Shown here: piece by piece, positions 2,916-64,000 of the stretch
Numbering within the stretch: position 1 is the first letter of the stretch
How the letters are laid out: each line of letters starts with the position of its first letter
Sequence record: PP301341.1
DNA length: 64,000 nucleotides
Reading direction: 5' to 3' (one strand)
From: Escherichia phage UE-S5b
The notes under the pieces: model-generated
Told to the model about the DNA's origin: nothing
Seen by the model: the letters and a program-made list of their open reading frames with translations, nothing else
The model's database searches: none
Made by a program: the position numbers and the translations under genes

Positions 2916-3605
2916 ATGAGTGAACTAACTAAGCAGCAGATTGTTAATGCCCTACCTGCTAACTTCAAGAACAGTGTAACCCAGGAGTTGGTGGACACGA
3001 TCAACAACATTACCCAAGACCAACTGGTTGCTGAGTCCTTCCGTGAAAACTTTATCTCCTACTCTGGTGTAATGAAGGAAGGTAAGTTTAAGACACAGGA
3101 TTACATGAATGCAGTTCAGTATGTGACTTACAAACATATGGGCTATTCAAATAAGGAAGCCTACTTCAAAACATTCCCTAACCGACAGGCAGAACTTGTA
3201 GCACGAGGAACCAGTGAGAAAGATATCAGTGCTTATGTATCTGCTTACCATAGGGGTAAATTGGTTAACCTCATCATGGAACAAAGTTTGGTTCCAGTGT
3301 GGATTGTGAACCAGGACAATTATCAAAAGGCTATCAACGTTCAGGTTGAACTAATGACCACAGCAGCAAGTGAGAAAGTAAGATGTGATGCAGCTAACTC
3401 TATCCTTACTCACTTGGCTAAACCGAAAGACCAGGTAACGAANATCAATCTGGACTTNAGAGAGAACTCCGGNTTAACTGACCTCAAGGCAACACTTGCT
3501 GCATTGGCTGAACAGCAGATTAATGCAATCAATAGTGGAGTACCTACTAAAGAGGTTGCTGGTTCTAAACTAGTACGTGCAGATGAGGACATTACAGATG
3601 TCTGA
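2916..3605 (+). CDS. putative terminase small subunit / DNA-packaging accessory protein
   Basis: 229-aa ORF immediately upstream of, and coupled to, the terminase large subunit (ATGTCTGA overlap). Assignment is by position only. Confidence 0.45.
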   Translation: MSELTKQQIVNALPANFKNSVTQELVDTINNITQDQLVAESFRENFISYSGVMKEGKFKTQDYMNAVQYVTYKHMGYSNKEAYFKTFPNRQAELVARGTSEKDISAYVSAYHRGKLVNLIMEQSLVPVWIVNQDNYQKAINVQVELMTTAASEKVRCDAANSILTHLAKPKDQVTXINLDXRENSXLTDLKATLAALAEQQINAINSGVPTKEVAGSKLVRADEDITDV

Positions 3606-5187
3606 GTTAATTAAACAGGAACTGGATGAATGGCTGGACCAGGTGGACTACTCCCACCTTAATTCATCTAACTATGTTCCTAGTCAGTTTGCTCTTACCT
3701 TTGCCAACTTTATTAAGTTGGTTAATGGCAAAGAAGGTGAATCCAACAAAACACCTCCAGTTCACTTGAAGATGTTGGATAAGATGATTAGCCCGAACCA
3801 GTATGTAGTTAACCTGTGTTTCCGTGGTGCAGGTAAAACTGCTGTGTTCATGGAGTACTTTACTTTGTTCCTGGCAGTGTTTGGTCATTTACCAAGCCTG
3901 GGTAAGGTAGAAGGAATGATTTACGTATCTGACTCAATGGATAACGGTGCTAAGTCTGCACGTAAGAACATTGAGTTCCGTTACAAGAATAGTGAGTTCC
4001 TTCAGCAATGGATACCTGAGGCTACATTTACAGATAACCTTCTGGAGTTCCGTAATGTAGAAGGACATCGACTTGGTGTTAAGTTGTTTGGTGCTAAGAC
4101 AGGTCTTCGTGGTACGAAGATATATGGTAAACGTCCAACACTCTGTGTACTGGATGACTTGATTAGTGATGGTGATGCTAACTCCAAGACAAGCATGGAA
4201 GCTATTAAGGATACCGTCTATAAAGGTGTGAACCATGCTCTTGACCCAACCCGTCGTAAAGTAATTTTCAATGGTACTCCCTTTAATAAGGAAGACATTA
4301 TCATTGAAGCAGTTGAGTCTGGTGCATGGGATGTCAACGTATGGCCTGTATGCGAGAAGTTCCCCTGTAGCAGGGAAGAATTTCAGGGTGCATGGGATGA
4401 CCGTTTCTCTTATGACTATATCAAAGCCCAATACGATATGGCAGTTAAGACGGGTAAGCTGGCAGGCTTCTATCAGGAACTTATGCTTCGTATTAGTTCT
4501 GAAGATGAGAGACTGGTTCAGGATAGTGAAATTAGGTGGTATAGCAGACAACAACTATTAAGGATGAAGTCCTGCTACAACTATTACATTACAACTGACT
4601 TTGCTACTTCGGAGAAACAGACCAGTGACTACAGTGTCATTTCAGTTTGGGCTTATAGTTCTAATGGAGATTGGTTCTGGGTTGATGGTGTGGCTAATCG
4701 TCAGCTTATGGATAAAAACTTTGATGACTTATTCCGTCTGGTTCAGGAATACCAACCACAAAATGTTGGGGTCGAAACCACAGGTCAACAAGGTGGATTC
4801 ATCTCACTCCTTCAAAAAGAAATGATTAACCGTAATGTCTTCTTTAACTTTGCATCCTCTGAAGGTGGTAAGCCAGGCATACGTCCTGTAACCTCTAAGC
4901 TGTCACGCTTTAACCTGGTAGTTCCATGGTTCAAAGCTGGTAAGATGTACTTCCCGGAAGAGTTGAGAGATTCAACTATTATGGGTTTGTTCATGGGCCA
5001 GATTAAATTAGCTACCATTAATGGAATCAAAGGTAAGGATGACTGTATTGATACTATCTCTATGCTGGGTTATCTCAATCCCTGGAAACCACAGGCAGGT
5101 ATGACTATGGTGGATAACAAGGGTGACCCGATGTGGGACGATGAAGAAGAAGATAGTGTTAACCCCCTACGTTCATATATTGTGTGA
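3598..5187 (+). CDS. terminase large subunit
   Basis: About 530 aa; P-loop-like FRGAGKTAV near the N-terminus, acidic LCVLDDLISDGD segment, C-terminal nuclease-like region. Start taken as ATG 3598 (track begins at a GTG at 3577). Confidence 0.7.
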   Translation: MSELIKQELDEWLDQVDYSHLNSSNYVPSQFALTFANFIKLVNGKEGESNKTPPVHLKMLDKMISPNQYVVNLCFRGAGKTAVFMEYFTLFLAVFGHLPSLGKVEGMIYVSDSMDNGAKSARKNIEFRYKNSEFLQQWIPEATFTDNLLEFRNVEGHRLGVKLFGAKTGLRGTKIYGKRPTLCVLDDLISDGDANSKTSMEAIKDTVYKGVNHALDPTRRKVIFNGTPFNKEDIIIEAVESGAWDVNVWPVCEKFPCSREEFQGAWDDRFSYDYIKAQYDMAVKTGKLAGFYQELMLRISSEDERLVQDSEIRWYSRQQLLRMKSCYNYYITTDFATSEKQTSDYSVISVWAYSSNGDWFWVDGVANRQLMDKNFDDLFRLVQEYQPQNVGVETTGQQGGFISLLQKEMINRNVFFNFASSEGGKPGIRPVTSKLSRFNLVVPWFKAGKMYFPEELRDSTIMGLFMGQIKLATINGIKGKDDCIDTISMLGYLNPWKPQAGMTMVDNKGDPMWDDEEEDSVNPLRSYIV

Positions 5188-13293: not shown

Positions 13294-13538
13294 AAAGAAA
13301 AGTAGAGTTAGTACCTAACTGGAAAAGNTGNTGGAANTGGGCATCCATTCANATTAGTACNNTTGGTTTANTTCTATTNTCNGCTNTAGATATNATCCAA
13401 CCAATGGTGACAGGATTACCTCGTCACATCTTGGAAGATATTCCCCATGGTTCCAATATTGCAATCGCACTGTTTGCCTTAAACATCATAGGCAGATTAA
13501 TACGATTCCGACCAAAGGAAGATTCACATGAAAGCTAA
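13278..13538 (+). CDS. putative holin (small membrane protein; sequence heavily N-masked)
   Basis: About 86 aa from ATG 13278 (MVRRLKRK...); hydrophobic segments; directly upstream of and overlapping the endolysin start; many N bases at 13328-13394. Confidence 0.4.
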   Translation: MVRRLKRKVELVPNWKXXWXWASIXISXXGLXLXXAXDXIQPMVTGLPRHILEDIPHGSNIAIALFALNIIGRLIRFRPKEDSHES

Positions 13539-16936: not shown

Positions 16937-17281
16937 ATGAGTAAAGAATCAACAATCGCAGGACTGGAACATCGACTGGAAGCTGCTAAAGGTGCAGTTG
17001 CACACGCAGAAGATGTACGTAAACTTTTGGAGTATCCACTGTTCCGTAAAGTAATTCTTCGTCAGTTCTGTGTGGAAGATTGTGCACGTTACGTGCAGGA
17101 GTCTGGTGACCCACTGCTTGAACCTAATAACCGTGCAGATGCATTGAACATGGCTCAAGCTGCTGGTCACTTACGTCGTTGGCTCGACCTCGCCATTCGT
17201 ATGGGNGAAAANGAAGCTGACGTTATTCTNCAGGTAGAAGAAGAACTCGANGCAGTTCGTGCTGAACCTGAAGANGAATAA
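16937..17281 (+). CDS. hypothetical protein (head-assembly region)
   Basis: 114-aa ORF between portal and scaffold; N bases in the 3' end. Confidence 0.45.
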   Translation: MSKESTIAGLEHRLEAAKGAVAHAEDVRKLLEYPLFRKVILRQFCVEDCARYVQESGDPLLEPNNRADALNMAQAAGHLRRWLDLAIRMXEXEADVIXQVEEELXAVRAEPEXE

Positions 17282-17300
17282 TTAACCGGAGATATTTCCT

Positions 17301-18521
17301 ATGACTACGGAAGCTGCAACCACAGCTTCCGACATTCTCGCAATGTCGGATGATGAGATTCTGAATATGGAAGCCCCAGCAGTTATCGCTGAGGAAGATA
17401 CTTCCACTCAGAACAACCCAGAAACCAACGGCGTACAGACTCCTGATGAAGAAGTTGACACCTCTGCTGTTGAAGACCTACCAACCGAAGAAACCTCCCC
17501 TGAAACCGAACCAGTTGAAGAAGATGNAGCAAATTCTTTAACTTCTGATAAAGTTGATGATAAAGTTGTTGACACAGAAGTTGATAGTAACGGTAAGCCG
17601 ATTACTAAAGCTGAACCTTCTACTNCTGAACCNGGCCAGGAACAGAAAGAAGAAGGCAAACAGTCTGAAGGTCTGCCTGCTGACTTCAACTATAAGGAAG
17701 GTTACGAGAAGTTGATGGCTCCTTTTAAAGCTAACGGCAAAATGATTACTCCCCGTTCACCGGAGGAGGCCATTAGCCTGATGCAGATGGGTGCTAACTA
17801 TACTCGNAANATGCAAGAACTNCAGCCNTACCGTAAGGTAATGCTGATGTTACAGAACAACGGTTTAATGGATGAGGACAAACTCTCTTTCCTGATTGAC
17901 CTGGATAAGAAGAATCCTGAGGCCATTAAGAAGTTGCTCAAAGACTCTGGTACAGACCCTCTGGACTTTAACCCAGATGAGGAAATTAACTACCAGGGTG
18001 GCAATCACCGTGTTACCGACACCGAAGCAGATTTTGCAACCGAAATTGACGACTTAAAGTCTACTCAAGAAGGACAAGCTACATTAGGTGTTATTGGCTC
18101 GACATGGGATGCTGCCAGTAAAGATGCTCTTTATCAGAATCGTGGCTTACTCCATACGATTCACGAACAGCGTGAGAATGGTATTTATGACACCATTGCT
18201 AACGAAGTGAATCGTCTTCAGATGTTAGGTCAGATTCCGGTAGGTACTCCGTTCATTCAGGCTTATAACTACGTTGGCAACCTCCTTGCACAACAGGGAG
18301 CATTTAACCAAGTAGCTAAGCCTGAGCCGGTACAAGCAGTTAAACCAGCGGTTCAGCCGGTAGTGCGTGTAGCACAACCTAAGCAGACTCTGGCTAACAA
18401 CGAGCAAGCTAAAGCAGCTTCCCTTAATCGGGCTGCTACACGCAAAGCAACACCTATTGTAAACCCACTCGCCATGAGTGATGAAGATTTCGCTAAACTC
18501 CCAGTACCGGGTAGTCTTTAA
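17301..18521 (+). CDS. putative scaffolding protein
   Basis: 406 aa, strongly acidic low-complexity N-terminal third, directly upstream of the capsid gene. Confidence 0.55.
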   Translation: MTTEAATTASDILAMSDDEILNMEAPAVIAEEDTSTQNNPETNGVQTPDEEVDTSAVEDLPTEETSPETEPVEEDXANSLTSDKVDDKVVDTEVDSNGKPITKAEPSTXEXGQEQKEEGKQSEGLPADFNYKEGYEKLMAPFKANGKMITPRSPEEAISLMQMGANYTXXMQEXQXYRKVMLMLQNNGLMDEDKLSFLIDLDKKNPEAIKKLLKDSGTDPLDFNPDEEINYQGGNHRVTDTEADFATEIDDLKSTQEGQATLGVIGSTWDAASKDALYQNRGLLHTIHEQRENGIYDTIANEVNRLQMLGQIPVGTPFIQAYNYVGNLLAQQGAFNQVAKPEPVQAVKPAVQPVVRVAQPKQTLANNEQAKAASLNRAATRKATPIVNPLAMSDEDFAKLPVPGSL

Positions 18522-24487: not shown

Positions 24488-26452
24488 ATGGCTCAAATTA
24501 CATGGCGTAATGTTGATGCACCTAACTTCTCTGGAGTAGGTGACAGCATTCGCACATTTGGTAGCATGATAGGTAACGCCACCTCCGGCTTAAGTGATGC
24601 ACTGGGTAATTTCCAGAACGCTGCCAAGCAGGAGGCTGGCAATGCCGTCATGATGAATGCTATGCAGTATCAAGATCCTACTGAGTACCGTAATGCTTTG
24701 GCATCAGGTGCACTGTTTCAGGGGGTTGACCCTTCATTGGTAAACCAGCGTACTCTCCAGAATCTGGATGAGCGAGCAGGTACACTGCTGACTCAACAAG
24801 GACAGCAGGGAACCAATGACTACATTGCATATCGCTTTGGTCGCTTAAAGGATATTAACTCAGCACTAGATAATGCTTCTCCGGCTATTCGTTTATTGTC
24901 TGAGGCTTATCAGTCTGGTGACCAGAATCGTATTAATACTGCATTGGGTCAGACTCGTGAGGCATTATCTACGCTCCCAGCTGACCAACAGTTAGAATTG
25001 TTAGGTAGTTTACAAGGACAGGGTAGTGCTGCTATTAATCAGGCGAGCAATCGTTTTGATTTGGGTGTTGCTCAACGTAATGATGCCGATAGTCAGGCAG
25101 CTATGGGTGTAATGGCACAGATTACCCGTGGTGCTGAGAACCCTAATGATGCCCGTCTGTTGGCAGAAGCATACAGTAAGAACCTGTCTCCAGTTGCACA
25201 GGCACGCTTGCAGGGATTACTGGCTAATGCTTACCCGGGTGTTTACGGTAATGGTGTAGGTGCTACGTCTGCTCCTGGTACTGCTGGTACTCGTCAGGGT
25301 TCACCTTACGATGTTACTTATCAGTTTGCTGGTACATCTACTCCTATTACTCAAATGAGTATTGGTGATGTAATTAAACACCAGGATGGTATGAAATCGA
25401 ACCAGGGTGCTTCCCCTGTTGGTGCATTCCAGATTAACCAAGCTACCTTGAAAGACTTTGCCCCCAAAGTTCTTGGTTCAGATTGGCAGAACCAACCTCT
25501 TTCCCCTGAGAACCAGGAGAAGATTGGTAAGGCTATTTTTGAGGCTCGTAAGAATGGTAACCTTAAAGATACCTGGGCTGCTCTTCCTAACTCTACCCCA
25601 GGTGCTTATAAGGATATGACTTGGGAACAGATTAAACCTGTTATTGCCCAAGCTGAAGTAGGGGCTGACCCATTCGCTCTGATTCAGAATAATCAAGGAA
25701 ATCAGGCAGTATCCACTCTGGCTCAGGGTATGATTGGTACTCGTTCTATGCAGGATAATACCGGTAGTCTTAATACTGACTTCCTTGGTACTGTCACTGA
25801 TAATACTCCAGTAGGTGAAATTGCTAACCGTCTATTAGATGGTGACTTTAAAGGTGCTGACCGTAACTGGGTACTGAACCGACTAACTGATATTTCTCAA
25901 CGTGGAAATATGTCACCAGCTATGGCTGCTGCTGTTATGCAGCGTGCACAGACTGGTGTACCGGAAGGTTACATTAGCCGTGCTATTGATGCAGTTAACC
26001 CATTCATTACCAACGAAGCCGGTAATGGTATGCGTCTTAATGACCGTTTGGTAGATCAGTTAATTGAGGGTGTACAACGTGGTGAACCACTGGAAGGCAG
26101 TGTGCGTAATCTTGGACGTGCTCAAGCTATGCAGAACATTCAGGCAGCACAGACTGCTTATGATGCTGCTGTAGCTGCACTGACAAATACTCAGAACAAG
26201 ATTAACACCGGACAAACAGGACTTACTGCATTGTTACCTGCACGTCAGGAAGCTGTTACTAAAGCTGCTGCAATGCTTCAAGCTGCACAAGCCCAAGTGC
26301 AAGCAGACCCAGCTAACCTGGCTCCAAGAGGTTTTCGGTCACAGGNTAGTGTGGACAGAGCACGAGCCAAGGAAGATGAAGAACGTGCTGCACGTTANCT
26401 ACGTCAGGCACANGGTTTGCCTGAGTATATGCAACCNAGACAAAATCGGTAA
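24488..26452 (+). CDS. internal virion protein, possibly with a muralytic-like domain
   Basis: 654 aa; low-complexity Q/A/N-rich N-terminal half; central segment ...GASPVGAFQINQATL... loosely resembles GxxQ motifs of transglycosylase-like folds (weak). Confidence 0.5.
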   Translation: MAQITWRNVDAPNFSGVGDSIRTFGSMIGNATSGLSDALGNFQNAAKQEAGNAVMMNAMQYQDPTEYRNALASGALFQGVDPSLVNQRTLQNLDERAGTLLTQQGQQGTNDYIAYRFGRLKDINSALDNASPAIRLLSEAYQSGDQNRINTALGQTREALSTLPADQQLELLGSLQGQGSAAINQASNRFDLGVAQRNDADSQAAMGVMAQITRGAENPNDARLLAEAYSKNLSPVAQARLQGLLANAYPGVYGNGVGATSAPGTAGTRQGSPYDVTYQFAGTSTPITQMSIGDVIKHQDGMKSNQGASPVGAFQINQATLKDFAPKVLGSDWQNQPLSPENQEKIGKAIFEARKNGNLKDTWAALPNSTPGAYKDMTWEQIKPVIAQAEVGADPFALIQNNQGNQAVSTLAQGMIGTRSMQDNTGSLNTDFLGTVTDNTPVGEIANRLLDGDFKGADRNWVLNRLTDISQRGNMSPAMAAAVMQRAQTGVPEGYISRAIDAVNPFITNEAGNGMRLNDRLVDQLIEGVQRGEPLEGSVRNLGRAQAMQNIQAAQTAYDAAVAALTNTQNKINTGQTGLTALLPARQEAVTKAAAMLQAAQAQVQADPANLAPRGFRSQXSVDRARAKEDEERAARXLRQAXGLPEYMQXRQNR

Positions 26453-26457
26453 TACTA

Positions 26458-26482
26458 ANAAAAGCCCTTCGGGGCTTTTTTC
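26458..26482 (+). terminator. rho-independent terminator
   Basis: AAAAGCCC-ttcg-GGGCTTTTTTC immediately after the stop of 24488..26452. Confidence 0.6.
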
Positions 26483-38105: not shown

Positions 38106-38386
38106 ATAAAAAAGTCCCCCAGAGTGACGGCTCCAGGGGACTTAGTACTATTTACCCATAGCTGGGAGGCTTTTGGTTCTTACCACGAAGACAGTCCACG
38201 CTGACNAGNCTTGGGATTGATAGTCCCGTTCCTGTGGTAATTACTCAGGCTAGGATTTAAGGAGTTCCTATTCTCCAGCGAAATTCCCGTCGANGGGAAT
38301 AACAATACAATAGCAGNCACTGGACTGTCTTACCAGTGTTGTCTTTAGAGTGCNATGCAATCAGGACTATGTTACTGCTGAATGGG

Positions 38387-58414: not shown

Positions 58415-59355
58415 TCAGTAATAGTCTCACCAGGAATTAACTTACGGAATTGGATAAAGTGAAGCAGGTTACCTGAGTACAGATTCCCTTCTTTATCCAT
58501 GGATGTAACACCTTGTTCCCATGTAACTGGGTTCATGTTATTTACATACTTCTCACCAAGGTTCATAGGTGTAGCCTGATGTTCCGTTGGGGAAGCATGA
58601 ATAGGTTGGTTTTCCACTAACTTAGCGAATAAGCCAAGGTCTTCCTCGATAGTAGATGGTCGTCCTTCGAAGTTGTTATAGGAAGCACGAGCACAGCGTG
58701 CAGCACTTACTTTGAGAAGTAGTCCATGCACTTCTGCATCACTTGGTTCATCGCGTGTAACTCGATTGCGTTTGCAGAAATTGTAAGCCCCAACACGGTC
58801 AATATGAGCAATNTANGGCANATGCCATTGCCCATATGGTAATGCTCTNGGTGTNCTTTCTTCCTGTGCCTTACGCATTGCTTGAGCCAGTTCACGAATC
58901 TCTGGTTGTGCATCTTTGTGGTCACGCAGTCCATAGAAATTAGCCCAGCTGGTTGAAGTTACCACTACACGAATATGCGTGAATGGTTCCAGAATACGGT
59001 TAACAATCTGCTTATGTACTTGCCCACGTCGTAGCTGTTCTGCATACACAGCAGCAGCAGATGCAGCGTTATCCCAGATAAACTTAGCATCCTCAATCTC
59101 CATAGGAGTGAGTTCTTCTTCTGCTTGCATACCTTTCTGGTTCTTGCCCCAGTGACTAGGCATCACTGGTTCATTACGAACTTGTTCGATGAACTTAGCC
59201 GTGGGAATAGCACGACTGCTTGANGCATTACGGTTGAATACACGGTGNGTCATAAACTCACTGTGAATGAATCGGGGATAAACCAATTCAAAGGTAGTAA
59301 TACGAGTTCCTGTTTCTGGGTGAACGGAATCTGCAATGACAGTTGCCTTAATCAT
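58411..59355 (-). CDS. flavin-dependent thymidylate synthase (ThyX-like)
   Basis: 314 aa; xHRVFNRNxSSSRAIP fits the ThyX RHR-x7-S signature if the ambiguous residue is R (N-masked codons). Confidence 0.45.
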   Translation of the reverse strand: MIKATVIADSVHPETGTRITTFELVYPRFIHSEFMXHRVFNRNXSSSRAIPTAKFIEQVRNEPVMPSHWGKNQKGMQAEEELTPMEIEDAKFIWDNAASAAAVYAEQLRRGQVHKQIVNRILEPFTHIRVVVTSTSWANFYGLRDHKDAQPEIRELAQAMRKAQEEXTXRALPYGQWHXXXIAHIDRVGAYNFCKRNRVTRDEPSDAEVHGLLLKVSAARCARASYNNFEGRPSTIEEDLGLFAKLVENQPIHASPTEHQATPMNLGEKYVNNMNPVTWEQGVTSMDKEGNLYSGNLLHFIQFRKLIPGETITE

Positions 59356-60565: not shown

Positions 60566-60775
60566 TTACTCAGCATCTTTGCTTGCAGGAGCAAGAGCTT
60601 TCTTCAGGTAATTGCGTACTGAACGATAGGTTTCTTTAGTATCCATAGCACTATCATTTACGAAAGTGATACGTGCACAATCAGACAGCGGAATCTGCTC
60701 CACTGCAATTACATTTGCAGCATTAATGGTTACACGTACATCTGAGGTTGCATGAGTTACTTGAAATACTGACAT
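60566..60775 (-). CDS. hypothetical small protein
   Basis: 69-aa ORF; hairpin TAGCCCA-N7-TGGGCTA lies just downstream. Confidence 0.35.
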   Translation of the reverse strand: MSVFQVTHATSDVRVTINAANVIAVEQIPLSDCARITFVNDSAMDTKETYRSVRNYLKKALAPASKDAE

Positions 60776-60805
60776 GTTGTTTCCTTAATTAAGCCGGATA
60801 GCCTT

Positions 60806-61312
60806 TTATTTTGAAGGTCTAGCAGCTACTGGTTTGTTTTCCTGATTCTGATACTTACCATTGTAATTAGCAGGTTCTTGAACCAGATGAAATAATACTT
60901 GAGCTATCCCAGCACCAGCCGGGATATGCAATTTCTTACGACCGTGATAGACCAGTTCGAGGGTAAGATACCCTTTCCATCCTGGTTCTATTACGGTATT
61001 GAACACTGATAATGCACGTCTTGCCCATGTAGACTTATCGTGAACGATTGCTACACAGGACGGGGACATGTTGAACTTCTCAATTGCTGAGGCCAAGGCG
61101 AACTTACCGAGATGGCGTGATACTTGATTTCCATCAACGACTTTCACCATTGGAATCAGCCCAAATAAGCGATAGAAGGTAATATCTTGTTTGATACGAA
61201 TATCATAACCAGCTTCACCTAATCCATAGCTTACACCATGCTCTGATACCTTATGGTCTGGGACATCCAGCAACTGAGATGAACGGTATAGAGAATTACC
61301 ATTAACAACCAT
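60806..61312 (-). CDS. dCTP deaminase / dUTPase-superfamily protein
   Basis: 168 aa; GLGEAGYDIRI and VFNTVIEPGWKGYLTLEL resemble the beta-barrel nucleotide-binding motifs of this superfamily. Confidence 0.55.
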   Translation of the reverse strand: MVVNGNSLYRSSQLLDVPDHKVSEHGVSYGLGEAGYDIRIKQDITFYRLFGLIPMVKVVDGNQVSRHLGKFALASAIEKFNMSPSCVAIVHDKSTWARRALSVFNTVIEPGWKGYLTLELVYHGRKKLHIPAGAGIAQVLFHLVQEPANYNGKYQNQENKPVAARPSK

Positions 61313-62487
61313 TATTTCATTCCTTTAGGGATATGAACTACCTCCCCAAAAGGTACGGTAGCATTGGGATTATTCAGAACACACCAGATGATAGGAATAT
61401 CAAATGGTAATTCTTCCATTGGACGAACATACATATCGGAGAATATGATTGCAGCGGTTGGTTTATTCTTAATAATCCACTCGCGTACTGGTTCCAGGTT
61501 TGTACCACCACGACCGGTAATCTTAATCTCTTCAAAAGTATCTTCTTCAGTGATGTCTATCTCTTCTTGGATAATATCGTCGAAGGTAATTAAGGACATC
61601 TTCTTAGGATTGAACTGGCTCTTAACGTAGGCAACCTCTGAGTTAAAACGCAGAGAGTCAGCACTACTAATAGAACCAGATACATCCTCAAAGTAGGCTA
61701 AGTGTCGTAAGCGTCCTTCATCATCTTCCATGGAAGGTAGATAGATGTCAGTAAAACGACGGTTAGGTCTGGCCCACGTATAATGAGTATCGTCAATGTC
61801 GGTAAAGAAGTTCATGAGGACTTCCTGCCATGGAACCACTGGTTTAAGGAATTGGGTAATAACCTCTTCCATACGACCAGCACCCTTACCGGGCATCTGT
61901 CCACCAGCCATTTTCTGGCTCTGCATTGCTCGTACTACGTTGTTGACGACAGCACCCTGGGACTGCCCCGAAGTGGGGGATTTCATGTCGCCAGCAAGAC
62001 CTGCTCCAGCACCCCCTGACGGCTTCTGCCTTTTCTGAGGGTTCTTCATCAGGTCATCGTAGATGTCTTCTTCGACCCATCCTTTATATTGAGGGTCTTT
62101 GCAAATACCTTTATCAATGCCAGTGAACTTATAACCATCTTCTTCTAACTGAAGGTTAATGAAGTGGTCACACGCCTGGTTCCAGATTTCTGGGTCACGG
62201 CTTCCACGACGGATGCCATGCAGATATGCCACATGCCAAAGTTCATGCATTAACACTGTTTCTCTGGCATCTGGACACATCCAGATAAAGAAATCTGGAT
62301 TGAAGTGAAGTTCTATCCCATCAGTACATGCAGTGGGACAATTCTCACGTTTCCATGAGAACTTAAGACTACATAGTAATGAACCAAAGAACGCAGCACT
62401 GCGTCCGAGAAATGCGTTGGCCTGTATTCTATCGTATTCCCTCATTAACTGTTCATCAGTGAGGTTATGTGGTGGTATGTTATTCAT
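61312..62487 (-). CDS. VWA-domain protein with N-terminal HExxH metallopeptidase-like domain (partner of the MoxR-type ATPase)
   Basis: 391 aa; MHELWHVAYLH (HExxH) in the N-terminal half; MIDAS motif DVSGSIS (DxSxS) in the C-terminal half. Confidence 0.6.
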   Translation of the reverse strand: MNNIPPHNLTDEQLMREYDRIQANAFLGRSAAFFGSLLCSLKFSWKRENCPTACTDGIELHFNPDFFIWMCPDARETVLMHELWHVAYLHGIRRGSRDPEIWNQACDHFINLQLEEDGYKFTGIDKGICKDPQYKGWVEEDIYDDLMKNPQKRQKPSGGAGAGLAGDMKSPTSGQSQGAVVNNVVRAMQSQKMAGGQMPGKGAGRMEEVITQFLKPVVPWQEVLMNFFTDIDDTHYTWARPNRRFTDIYLPSMEDDEGRLRHLAYFEDVSGSISSADSLRFNSEVAYVKSQFNPKKMSLITFDDIIQEEIDITEEDTFEEIKITGRGGTNLEPVREWIIKNKPTAAIIFSDMYVRPMEELPFDIPIIWCVLNNPNATVPFGEVVHIPKGMK

Positions 62488-62963
62488 TAAGATGCTCCAT
62501 GATTTATATGGTAACCCAATAATTTTTCTGCTTCCTTTCTGGCTGTAATGGCCTCTTGTTTACTGTTAAACTTTCCTAAGTAAATTTGTTTACCATTATC
62601 ATTTATATGGGCAGCCCAGATTTTATCTCGGGTGTGCCAGTAAACTCCTGTCACACCTGATGTATTTGTAATTCTCTTGGTTTGATTTTTGCAATTAATC
62701 GAGTTTGTTACTAAACGGAAATTGCTTGGGTAATTATTTAATCTATTATGGTCAATATGGTCTACCTGCATACCGTCAGGAATTGGTCCAATCTCCATTT
62801 CATAAATTATGCGGTGAACTAAATGCATTTTCTTGTTACATTTAACACGCAAATACCCACTGTTATCCAAACAACCGGCAATGGCACCTGCTTTTACGCA
62901 GCCCCTGCTTACTTTCCAGTAGAGGGAACCATTGCTATAAACAAATAGTTCATGCCAATTCAT
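62487..62963 (-). mobile_element. HNH-AP2 homing endonuclease gene inserted between the VWA and ATPase genes
   Basis: 158 aa; HNH core LVHRIIYEMEIGPIPDGMQVDHIDHNRLNN; C-terminal AP2-like GVYWHTRDKIWAAHINDNGKQIYLGKFNSKQEAITARKEA; start and stop abut both neighbours. Confidence 0.7.
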
Positions 62964-62967
62964 TATT

Positions 62968-64000
62968 TTATCCGTGAATGTAACGAGAGATATTAGCAGC
63001 AGCCTTACGCCATTCAGGTGTAGCCTGAAGTTCTGGCAATGCTCTGCCTACTGTACGGAAGTACAGAATCTTATGGGTGAACGTTTTAAAGCGTTCAATG
63101 TACTGAAGAACATCAGAGAAGTTTTCTTCAGTAGTTTTGTTAGCCAGGTGGTTAACAGTAGCCCAACACAGGTTGTTATCTTCCGGTAGTGCACAGCCCA
63201 GAGGGTCTTTGACTACTTTCTCAATCGTAATCATACGATTGTATACCTGAGTGAATTGAACAAACTCTGTAGCCTTACCAGCAGTAACATGTCCTGCGTA
63301 GTAGATAGAATCTTCATCTGGCAGAGCACCTTCAGGACGGTTCTTGAGGTCTTTGTTAACAAAGTCCCAGGTGCGTGGGCAACAGAACGTTTTGTTCTTA
63401 TGGGCTGGGTCGAAGTCATGCAGATAACCTGGGTTAGCATGTAAGAATGCAACCAGACGTTCATCCCATTCTTGTGGAATCATTACATCTTCAACAAAGA
63501 TGTCGAAGTTAAGTTCCATTTCGAAGTGAACCACGCGAGACTGCATTGCAGTGCCCAGTGGGTTAACAATGGCACGGTCAGTAGCTTTGTTACCAGCACA
63601 TATAATCATCACATTAGGATGGAGTTTTTTCTGACCAGTCATACGGTCCAGAATCAGTTTGTATGCAGCAGCTACTACTTCTTTTCTGGCTGAGTTGAAC
63701 TCATCAAGGAACAGGAGCCAACCATTATATCCTTCCGGTATCTCATCCCCCTCAATAGGGAATAAGTCAGCGAATGGGATAAACTCTGCACGGTCACCAT
63801 TACGGAATGGTAGACCAGACAAATCCTCTGGGGCAGAAGTAGACAGACGATGGTCTATCAGTTTCATACCAAATTCTTCTGCAACAGAGCGAATAATTGC
63901 AGATTTACCCATTCCCGGTGATGAAGTCAGGAACGGTACGTTACCTGCTTGCAGGGCACGGATAATAAAGTTACGGGCCTGACGTGTATTACATACGGTC
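62968..64000 (-). CDS. MoxR-like AAA+ ATPase (N-terminus beyond the window end)
   Basis: Walker A ...TSSPGMGKSAII; Walker B WLLFLDEFN; the ORF stays open upstream of the track start at 63912 through to the window end. Confidence 0.65.
   Translation of the reverse strand, partial: TVCNTRQARNFIIRALQAGNVPFLTSSPGMGKSAIIRSVAEEFGMKLIDHRLSTSAPEDLSGLPFRNGDRAEFIPFADLFPIEGDEIPEGYNGWLLFLDEFNSARKEVVAAAYKLILDRMTGQKKLHPNVMIICAGNKATDRAIVNPLGTAMQSRVVHFEMELNFDIFVEDVMIPQEWDERLVAFLHANPGYLHDFDPAHKNKTFCCPRTWDFVNKDLKNRPEGALPDEDSIYYAGHVTAGKATEFVQFTQVYNRMITIEKVVKDPLGCALPEDNNLCWATVNHLANKTTEENFSDVLQYIERFKTFTHKILYFRTVGRALPELQATPEWRKAAANISRYIHG

Follow-up and report, generated by a model that had tools for sequence, protein, structure and literature searches.

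A probable free-standing HNH-AP2 homing endonuclease gene between the ATPase and VWA genes of the G7C-like coliphage UE-S5b

In the present study, we analyzed a stretch of 64,000 nucleotides (nt) from Escherichia phage UE-S5b (PP301341.1; hereafter, the window), in which an open reading frame (ORF) of 158 amino acids (aa) lies on the minus strand between a gene for an AAA+ ATPase and a gene for a protein with a VWA-like domain (hereafter, the VWA gene). Our data indicate that this ORF is, with good probability, a free-standing HNH-AP2 homing endonuclease gene (HEG) residing at the ATPase/VWA junction of a G7C-like coliphage. We base this reading on the domains of the encoded protein, the patchy occupancy of the locus, an empty site in a close relative, a recoded block linked to the gene, the discordant histories of the gene and its surroundings, purifying selection, and the mobility of the family to which the gene belongs.

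The gene is a known kind of element from a well-described family, and it is already labelled in public records, i.e., as "HNH homing endonuclease" in UE-S5a (UES5a059, WVP99889, record PP175015) and as "putative HNH homing endonuclease" in vB_EcoP_G7C (gp24.1, YP_004782150), where ".1" marks a gene that N4 does not have between gp24 and gp25. These two are the same gene as ours, at the same junction and with no structural difference, and the G7C record cites TLS EndZ. The paper on the UE phages (PMC11927229) does not discuss a homing endonuclease. Across 3.2 kb around the ORF, the window is 100% identical to UE-S5a and UE-M3, 99.8% identical to UE-M6, and 92.7% identical to G7C, all of which are assigned to Schitoviridae, Enquatrovirinae, genus Gamaleyavirus (N4-family, G7C-like). 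The endonuclease gene itself is 100% identical at the nt level to its counterparts in the three UE phages and 92% identical to that of G7C.

The ORF begins with an ATG at 62961-62963 and ends with a TAA at 62487-62489 (the coordinates of all features are listed in Table 1). Its start codon follows the ATPase stop codon (TAA, 62968-62970) after 4 nt (AATA), and its TAA overlaps the ATG of the VWA gene (62485-62487) by 1 nt, producing the sequence TAATG. In genomes without the endonuclease gene, the spacer before the VWA ATG is AACA; since the two spacers are of the same type, the endonuclease ATG occupies the position that the VWA ATG holds in those genomes. Indeed, every copy found among relatives begins at that position, and every copy displays the TA/ATG stop/start overlap. 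A tblastn search of the 64 kb window with the protein returned no second copy (no match below E = 1).

The encoded protein combines two domains. Over aa 48-90, it matches Pfam HNH_3 (PF13392) with 65.8 bits (cut-off, 24.8; E = 2.6e-18), and over aa 102-138 the single sequence matches AP2 (PF00847) with 31.2 bits (E = 2.8e-7), just below the cut-off of 33.3 bits; PF00847 matches are precomputed for many of its homologues. In addition, it matches PHROG 99 ("HNH endonuclease") with an E value of 2.4e-63. Comparison of a profile built from 47 homologues with the PDB revealed I-HmuI (1U3E; E = 3.2e-12), the nicking enzyme of Bacillus phage SPO1, aligned over profile positions 7-107 and also matched by the single sequence, as well as the Arabidopsis AP2 domains of WRI1 (8.3e-7) and TEM1 (8.9e-4). 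D68-H69, N81, and N90 of the endonuclease align with D74-H75, N87, and N96 of I-HmuI, the residues to which Shen et al. in 2004 reportedly assigned catalytic or metal-binding roles. In the alignment of the 47 homologues, H69 and N81 are invariant, whereas conservation reaches at least 90% at D68, N77, N90, and N93.

An AlphaFold2 model built on the same alignment (mean pLDDT, 93.4) comprises an N-terminal sheet (strands at aa 7-10, 13-16, 38-42, and 45-48), a beta-beta-alpha core (strands at 65-69 and 82-86, helix at 87-92), and a C-terminal AP2 unit of three strands and a helix (strands at 107-110, 115-122, and 125-132; helix at 135-149). A Foldseek search with this model ranked I-HmuI (1U3E) first (E = 1.7e-4) and plant AP2/ERF domains next, namely 7ET5, 7WQ5, and the GCC-box domain of AtERF1 (1GCC), the last aligning over 50 columns with a root-mean-square deviation of 1.2 A and a target TM-score of 0.67. 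Given the HNH_3 and AP2 matches and these structural similarities, the protein is predicted to be an I-HmuI-like HNH nuclease with an AP2 domain as its C-terminal DNA-binding module. The first-pass annotation of this DNA, made from the letters alone, had correctly described an ORF with an HNH core and an AP2-type domain that runs from the ATPase stop to the VWA start; only the 4-nt spacer and the 1-nt overlap need to be added to its account.

With a 1.6 kb query across the junction, we retrieved 56 records, corresponding to about 40 distinct Gamaleyavirus phages. Nine distinct phages carry the gene (match span, ~1600 nt): UE-S5a, UE-M3, UE-M6, G7C, Mimir124, PD38, Bp4, Uz-1, and Moonfish, with the copies in the last four representing a more divergent endonuclease lineage. 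The junction is empty in the remaining ~31 of the 40, with match spans of 1123-1128 nt; in the empty phage NAN33P5, the span is 1,993 nt owing to a separate insert in the ATPase gene. Relative to the UE-S5a protein, identity is 93% in G7C, 81% in Mimir124, and 60% in PD38, whose ORF is intact. The Moonfish copy has suffered a deletion and a frameshift that remove much of the AP2 domain.

A precise empty site is found in PGN829.1, a near-isogenic phage that lacks the endonuclease, has flanks 99.0-99.4% identical to those of UE-S5a, and reads TAA-AACA-ATG at the junction. Moreover, the backbones nearest to UE-S5a are all empty (PGN829.1, 98.4%; PBM-2/3, 95%), whereas the carrier G7C is more distant (92.7%), and the cassette and its surroundings therefore have different histories. 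Of 10 more distant N4-like contigs (45-76% aa identity), 8 likewise have the ATPase gene immediately next to the VWA gene, and the endonuclease is absent from the junction in all 10. The remaining two have unrelated small ORFs there (50, 82, and 64 aa at 2380-2980 of contig L023; 82 aa at 2699-2947 of contig L020), and tblastn of the window endonuclease against both gave no match at an E cut-off of 1e-4; thus, the ATPase/VWA junction tolerates other insertions too. The first-pass annotation had proposed a mobile insertion into an otherwise coupled gene pair, to be distinguished by a comparison of this junction from a long-resident gene that all relatives carry with matching codon usage. Most related genomes lack the gene, and its proposal is supported by the adjacency of the pair in most relatives, the precise empty site of PGN829.1, and the block described below.

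The insertion is accompanied by a short recoded block at the start of the VWA gene. Between UE-S5a and PGN829.1, we counted 4 differences across the final 940 nt of the ATPase gene, as against 27 across VWA nt 6-72 and none across VWA nt 73-588, i.e., 27 of 67 nt in the block against 4 of 1,456 flanking nt (Fisher's exact p = 1.9e-35). A comparison of five carriers with nine empty genomes located all 11 fixed differences at VWA nt 7-60 (window 62428-62481) and none in the 400 nt upstream. Carriers and empty genomes are 66% identical across VWA nt 1-60 and ~93% identical elsewhere, and within-group identities in the same 60 nt are 87% and 94.5%. The changes are mostly silent: the peptide DEQLMREYDR is encoded as GATGAACAGTTAATGAGGGAATACGATAGA in carriers and as GATGAACAACTCATGCGTGAGTATGACCGT in empty genomes, with ~9-10 synonymous changes. 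PD38 and two further carriers from public assemblies (L029 and L030) share the carrier block, which is absent from all nine sequenced empty genomes. A search of IMG/VR with a degenerate 30-nt pattern for genomes that have the block and lack the gene (i.e., "resistant but empty") found only G7C itself. Allowing up to 3 mismatches, we found no occurrence of the empty-type target sequence in the window, an expected result that shows only that the window has no self-site.

From these alignments, we postulate that the block is either a form of the target that resists cleavage or a donor tract that came in by co-conversion, and we predict that empty genomes have the target site at the 5' end of their VWA gene. 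Whichever of the two it is, the exchanged unit would appear to be the endonuclease ORF together with ~60-72 nt. The gene also seems to be maintained as a protein-coding sequence, since the ratio of nonsynonymous to synonymous divergence (dN/dS) between the UE-S5a and G7C copies is 0.095, a value that points to purifying selection. Between UE-S5a and Mimir124, synonymous sites of the endonuclease are saturated (proportion of synonymous differences, 0.77) at a flank dS of 0.30-0.44; the endonuclease lineages are therefore older than their local backbones.

We propose the following route of homing. The gene would be co-transcribed with the operon, borrowing the ribosome-binding context and the start-codon position of the VWA gene. 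A scan of the coding strand for sigma-70 promoters, with N4-type promoters outside its coverage, and for terminators revealed neither a sigma-70-like promoter nor a terminator within the gene, and the counts were not above those in shuffled sequences. The 3' end of the gene would in turn provide the VWA gene with a Shine-Dalgarno-like GGAG and the TAATG overlap, which should keep that gene translated and its expression maintained. The end motif AATCATGGAGCA, followed by Y-C-Y-TA/ATG, occurs in four of five aligned carrier lineages, whereas G7C has AATCATGGGGAA (AATCATGGGGAACCCTA/ATG) instead. Because the endonuclease inherits the upstream context of the VWA gene and brings its own GGAG before the VWA ATG, the insertion looks non-disruptive to the operon.

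In a mixed infection, the protein would bind the empty allele of a rival phage through its N-terminal sheet and AP2 domain, presumably somewhere in the opening ~60 nt of the VWA gene, adjoining the insertion point. Its I-HmuI-like HNH center (D68, H69, N81, and N90) would then nick or cut the rival DNA, and recombinational repair from the carrier would copy the gene and the ~60-72 nt recoded VWA segment into the rival ("intronless homing" with co-conversion). The carrier would be spared by the mostly synonymous recoding of its own site.

Table 1. Features at and around the endonuclease gene of UE-S5b (window coordinates)
Feature	Position	Strand	Basis
Probable free-standing homing endonuclease gene, 158 aa	62487..62963	-	ORF call; Pfam HNH_3 and AP2; PHROG 99; homologue of G7C gp24.1, same as UE-S5a UES5a059
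N-terminal beta-strand region, aa 1-47, resembling the N-terminal DNA-binding sheet of I-HmuI	62823..62963	-	Profile-1U3E alignment; model
HNH (beta-beta-alpha-metal) nuclease core, aa 48-90	62694..62822	-	Pfam HNH_3; I-HmuI alignment; residue conservation
AP2-type DNA-binding domain, aa 102-149, three strands and a helix	62517..62660	-	Pfam AP2; profile; model; Foldseek
GGAG, Shine-Dalgarno-like motif in the last endonuclease codons	62495..62498	-	Sequence reading; 7 nt before the VWA ATG
4-nt spacer AATA, ATPase stop to endonuclease ATG	62964..62967	-	Alignment with empty genomes
Endonuclease-linked recoded block, first 72 nt of the VWA gene	62416..62487	-	Carrier-versus-empty alignments; Fisher test
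Putative metallopeptidase (DUF2201_N) and VWA-like (DUF2201) protein, 391 aa, N4 gp25 homologue	61312..62487	-	ORF; Pfam
AAA+ ATPase, N4 gp24 homologue; 5' end ~20 nt past the window edge	62968..64000	-	ORF; Pfam; PDB profile

Several points weigh against this interpretation. Cleavage and homing by the UE-S5b protein and G7C gp24.1 are predictions; the block could be donor DNA that travels with the gene rather than a site selected for resistance; and the UE-S5a/PGN829.1 pair cannot separate gain from loss. Between UE-S5a and G7C, the dS of the endonuclease (0.37) equals that of the flanks (0.33-0.38), which means that the gene has long been passed on by vertical descent rather than having invaded recently. 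In Logan contig L029, the gene is 96.6% identical, the block 100%, and the flanks 93-96%, so that the cassette appears only marginally more conserved than the backbone; we considered this contig as a case of recent transfer between backbones and set it aside, the contrast being too small for such a claim. Base composition gives a divided answer to the suggestion of the first-pass annotation that GC content and codon usage might deviate locally. The GC content of the gene is indeed low (36.9% versus 42.7 +/- 2.8% for 56 ORFs; z = -2.1, the third lowest), but GC content at third codon positions (GC3) is not deviant (0.34 versus 0.377 +/- 0.05; z = -0.75), and codon usage is not clearly foreign. 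The truncation in Moonfish and a possible frameshift in Bp4, by contrast, speak for the main interpretation, as the decay phase of a HEG life cycle would produce such copies; since, however, the ATPase and VWA genes in the Bp4 record are also split or frameshifted and the related PD38 copy is intact, the Bp4 frameshifts suggest homopolymer sequencing errors and not real pseudogenes.

Some of these points would suit a domesticated resident gene that serves the phage, is inherited vertically, and has been lost repeatedly to give the empty genomes. The low dN/dS, the synonymous divergence shared with the flanks, the unremarkable GC3, and the seamless fit of the gene into the translation signals of the operon are all compatible with this view. 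AP2 domains occur in phage DNA-binding regulators and anti-CRISPR proteins (bioRxiv 10.64898/2026.02.23.707548), and an "HNH endonuclease" is listed among the proteins detected by liquid chromatography-tandem mass spectrometry in UE phage preparations, the gene meant not being stated (PMC11927229). Nevertheless, the gene is absent from about three-quarters of the genus and from the junction of all 10 distant N4-like contigs, one copy (Moonfish) is truncated, and homing or co-conversion, but not random deletion, predicts both a precise empty site within a backbone that is 99% identical and a block limited to the cassette. We therefore regard domestication as unlikely. Under this unlikely reading, the protein might act as a sequence-specific regulator through its AP2 domain, as a nuclease directed at host or competitor DNA, or as an accessory of replication or packaging; the intact catalytic residues speak against a purely DNA-binding role, and the gene is not beside terminase or packaging genes.

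We attach equally little weight to a decaying passenger, i.e., an inactive gene that arrived once by illegitimate recombination and has been hitch-hiking since, with the block as the edge of the incoming segment. Endonuclease activity is itself a prediction, divergence among the UE-S5a, G7C, and Logan copies roughly tracks that of their backbones, and Moonfish carries a truncated copy; in addition, each end of the insert has a short ATGAAY motif, which would suit a microhomology-mediated origin. Yet the dN/dS and the fully conserved catalytic residues indicate that the protein has been maintained, and at least three diverged lineages (93%, 81%, and 60% aa identity to UE-S5a) share identical boundaries in different backbones. 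Furthermore, the backbones nearest to UE-S5a are empty, and the cassette has therefore been exchanged as a unit.

It is very improbable that the ORF belongs to a self-splicing intron or an intein: related phages do have HNH genes inside the ATPase ORF, and the insert in one of them (U1G) matches a group I intron below threshold (23.7 bits; E = 0.0014), but those intron-associated proteins are only ~34% identical to ours, the ORF is confined to the interval from the ATPase stop to the VWA start, and the flanking ORFs are complete and collinear with those of empty relatives. We rejected this candidate because no Rfam family, group I and group II introns included, reached its gathering score anywhere in the UE-S5a locus (L001). 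The free-standing nature of the gene, as proposed in the first-pass annotation, thus stands.

A free-standing HNH-AP2 homing endonuclease gene can be placed among well-studied elements. The T4 genes SegF, SegG, and MobE are free-standing HEGs with experimentally proven intronless homing or marker exclusion, the Seg enzymes being of the GIY-YIG type and the Mob enzymes of another HNH type. The UE-S5b gene resembles them in being inserted between conserved genes, with a predicted target in the neighboring gene of HEG-less relatives, and in having flanking polymorphisms that would protect the carrier and be co-converted with the gene, a likeness drawn here from comparative sequence. I-HmuI, the best match by sequence as well as by structure, shares the N-terminal sheet, the HNH core, and the D-H...N...N residues, but it is encoded within a group I intron and has a C-terminal helical/helix-turn-helix module, whereas our gene is free-standing and has an AP2 domain. 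The HNH endonucleases F-TflI to F-TflV of T5 and the "EndZ" HNH proteins of T1/TLS-like phages are homologous to ours over nearly the full length (32-48% aa identity) but differ in their phage families and insertion sites.

HNH-AP2 proteins form a recognized HEG family (Magnani, Sjolander and Hake 2004, as cited in PMC10448857). The "IPA-HNH" HEGs (Barth et al. 2023, PMC10448857) likewise combine an N-terminal HNH with a C-terminal AP2 domain; they too are free-standing, neighbor core or essential genes of the phage, and show a patchy distribution. Pfam HNH_3 fails to match the ICP1 "IPA-HNH" proteins because of their divergence (PMC10448857), whereas the window protein is a canonical HNH_3 member. 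Overall, homologues of the endonuclease occur in 3,607 phage records from many genera. One of them, a 50%-identical HNH homologue at 3001-3477 of N4-like contig L031, lies just upstream of the DNA polymerase A gene. It follows a 176-aa ORF, which itself comes after a PIF1-type helicase gene, and thus occupies another site, beside an essential gene. In two relatives with 76% identity (L015 and L026), a 41-aa stretch at 4710-4832, downstream of the VWA gene, is 46% identical to aa 118-158 of the endonuclease, and this AP2-like stretch may belong to, or be left over from, another endonuclease gene.

The locus hosts further insertions. Among phages with an empty junction, the ATPase ORF is split by other HNH genes (~34% identical) in U1G (L004, 3852-4790), in NAN33P5 (L008), and in a pSb-1-like uncultivated virus genome (L017). 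In U1G and NAN33P5, the ATPase ORF is interrupted after aa ~99 (in NAN33P5 once more near aa 209); in L017, it is interrupted after aa 60. The U1G match mentioned above is a full-length match to RF00028, whose gathering score is 50. These HNH inserts are probably HEG-bearing introns, which would make the locus a hot spot for selfish nucleases. We cautiously suggest, as a possibility that is less than even, that the ATPase/VWA locus of Gamaleyavirus is a small arena of competing selfish nucleases: at least three diverged HNH-AP2 lineages occupy one junction, each with its own variant of the recoded 60-nt block, and the other HNH genes split the adjacent ATPase gene.

Turning to the flanking genes, the downstream protein contains a putative metallopeptidase domain (PF13203, DUF2201_N; 191 bits) and a VWA-like domain (PF09967, DUF2201; 119 bits). 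The ATPase matches PF00004 (AAA) above the cut-off with 28.8 bits and PF07728 (AAA_5) with 17.5 bits, below the 22-bit cut-off, and its sole sequence match of solved structure is the AAA module of midasin (E = 9.6e-5). NCBIfam returned no match for the ATPase, the endonuclease, or the VWA protein. Of the MoxR ATPase/VWA pair named in the first-pass annotation, the VWA-type domain is thus borne out, whereas the sub-threshold AAA_5 score lends MoxR only loose support, and we consider that label plausible but unproven. A literature search for what the DUF2201/ATPase pair does in phages found nothing useful.

The VWA/metallopeptidase protein has no HNH match and falls in PHROG 1314, which is labelled "HNH endonuclease". 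Because PHROG 1314 carries that label, many Gamaleyavirus records (e.g., RefSeq NC_070871 gp13) give this name to the VWA/metallopeptidase protein. It looks like a spreading mis-annotation, one that can mislead counts of endonuclease genes. We also noted 65 single N bases in the window, which are clustered (e.g., 13328-13394, 17206-17828, 26346-26459, 38206-38354, 58813-58855, and 60258) and in several cases lie inside ORFs (giving X in the ThyX translation); none occurs in 60600-64000. They are possibly masked polymorphic positions or the product of a consensus assembly.

The importance of the finding beyond housekeeping is small. The locus nevertheless offers a clean natural example of a free-standing endonuclease gene with an empty site and a linked block, resistant or co-converted, in a genus under development for therapy, and the characterized HNH-AP2 enzymes could gain one more sequence-specific nuclease or nickase. 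Its added value is a sharply defined and testable target prediction, namely, nt 7-60 of the VWA gene in empty alleles. Such elements bias inheritance and set recombination boundaries during co-infection, for instance in phage cocktails. If the lineages at this junction do differ in specificity and cut each other's alleles, the locus would drive marker exclusion and shape recombination boundaries in co-infecting phages, including coliphages that are therapeutic candidates.

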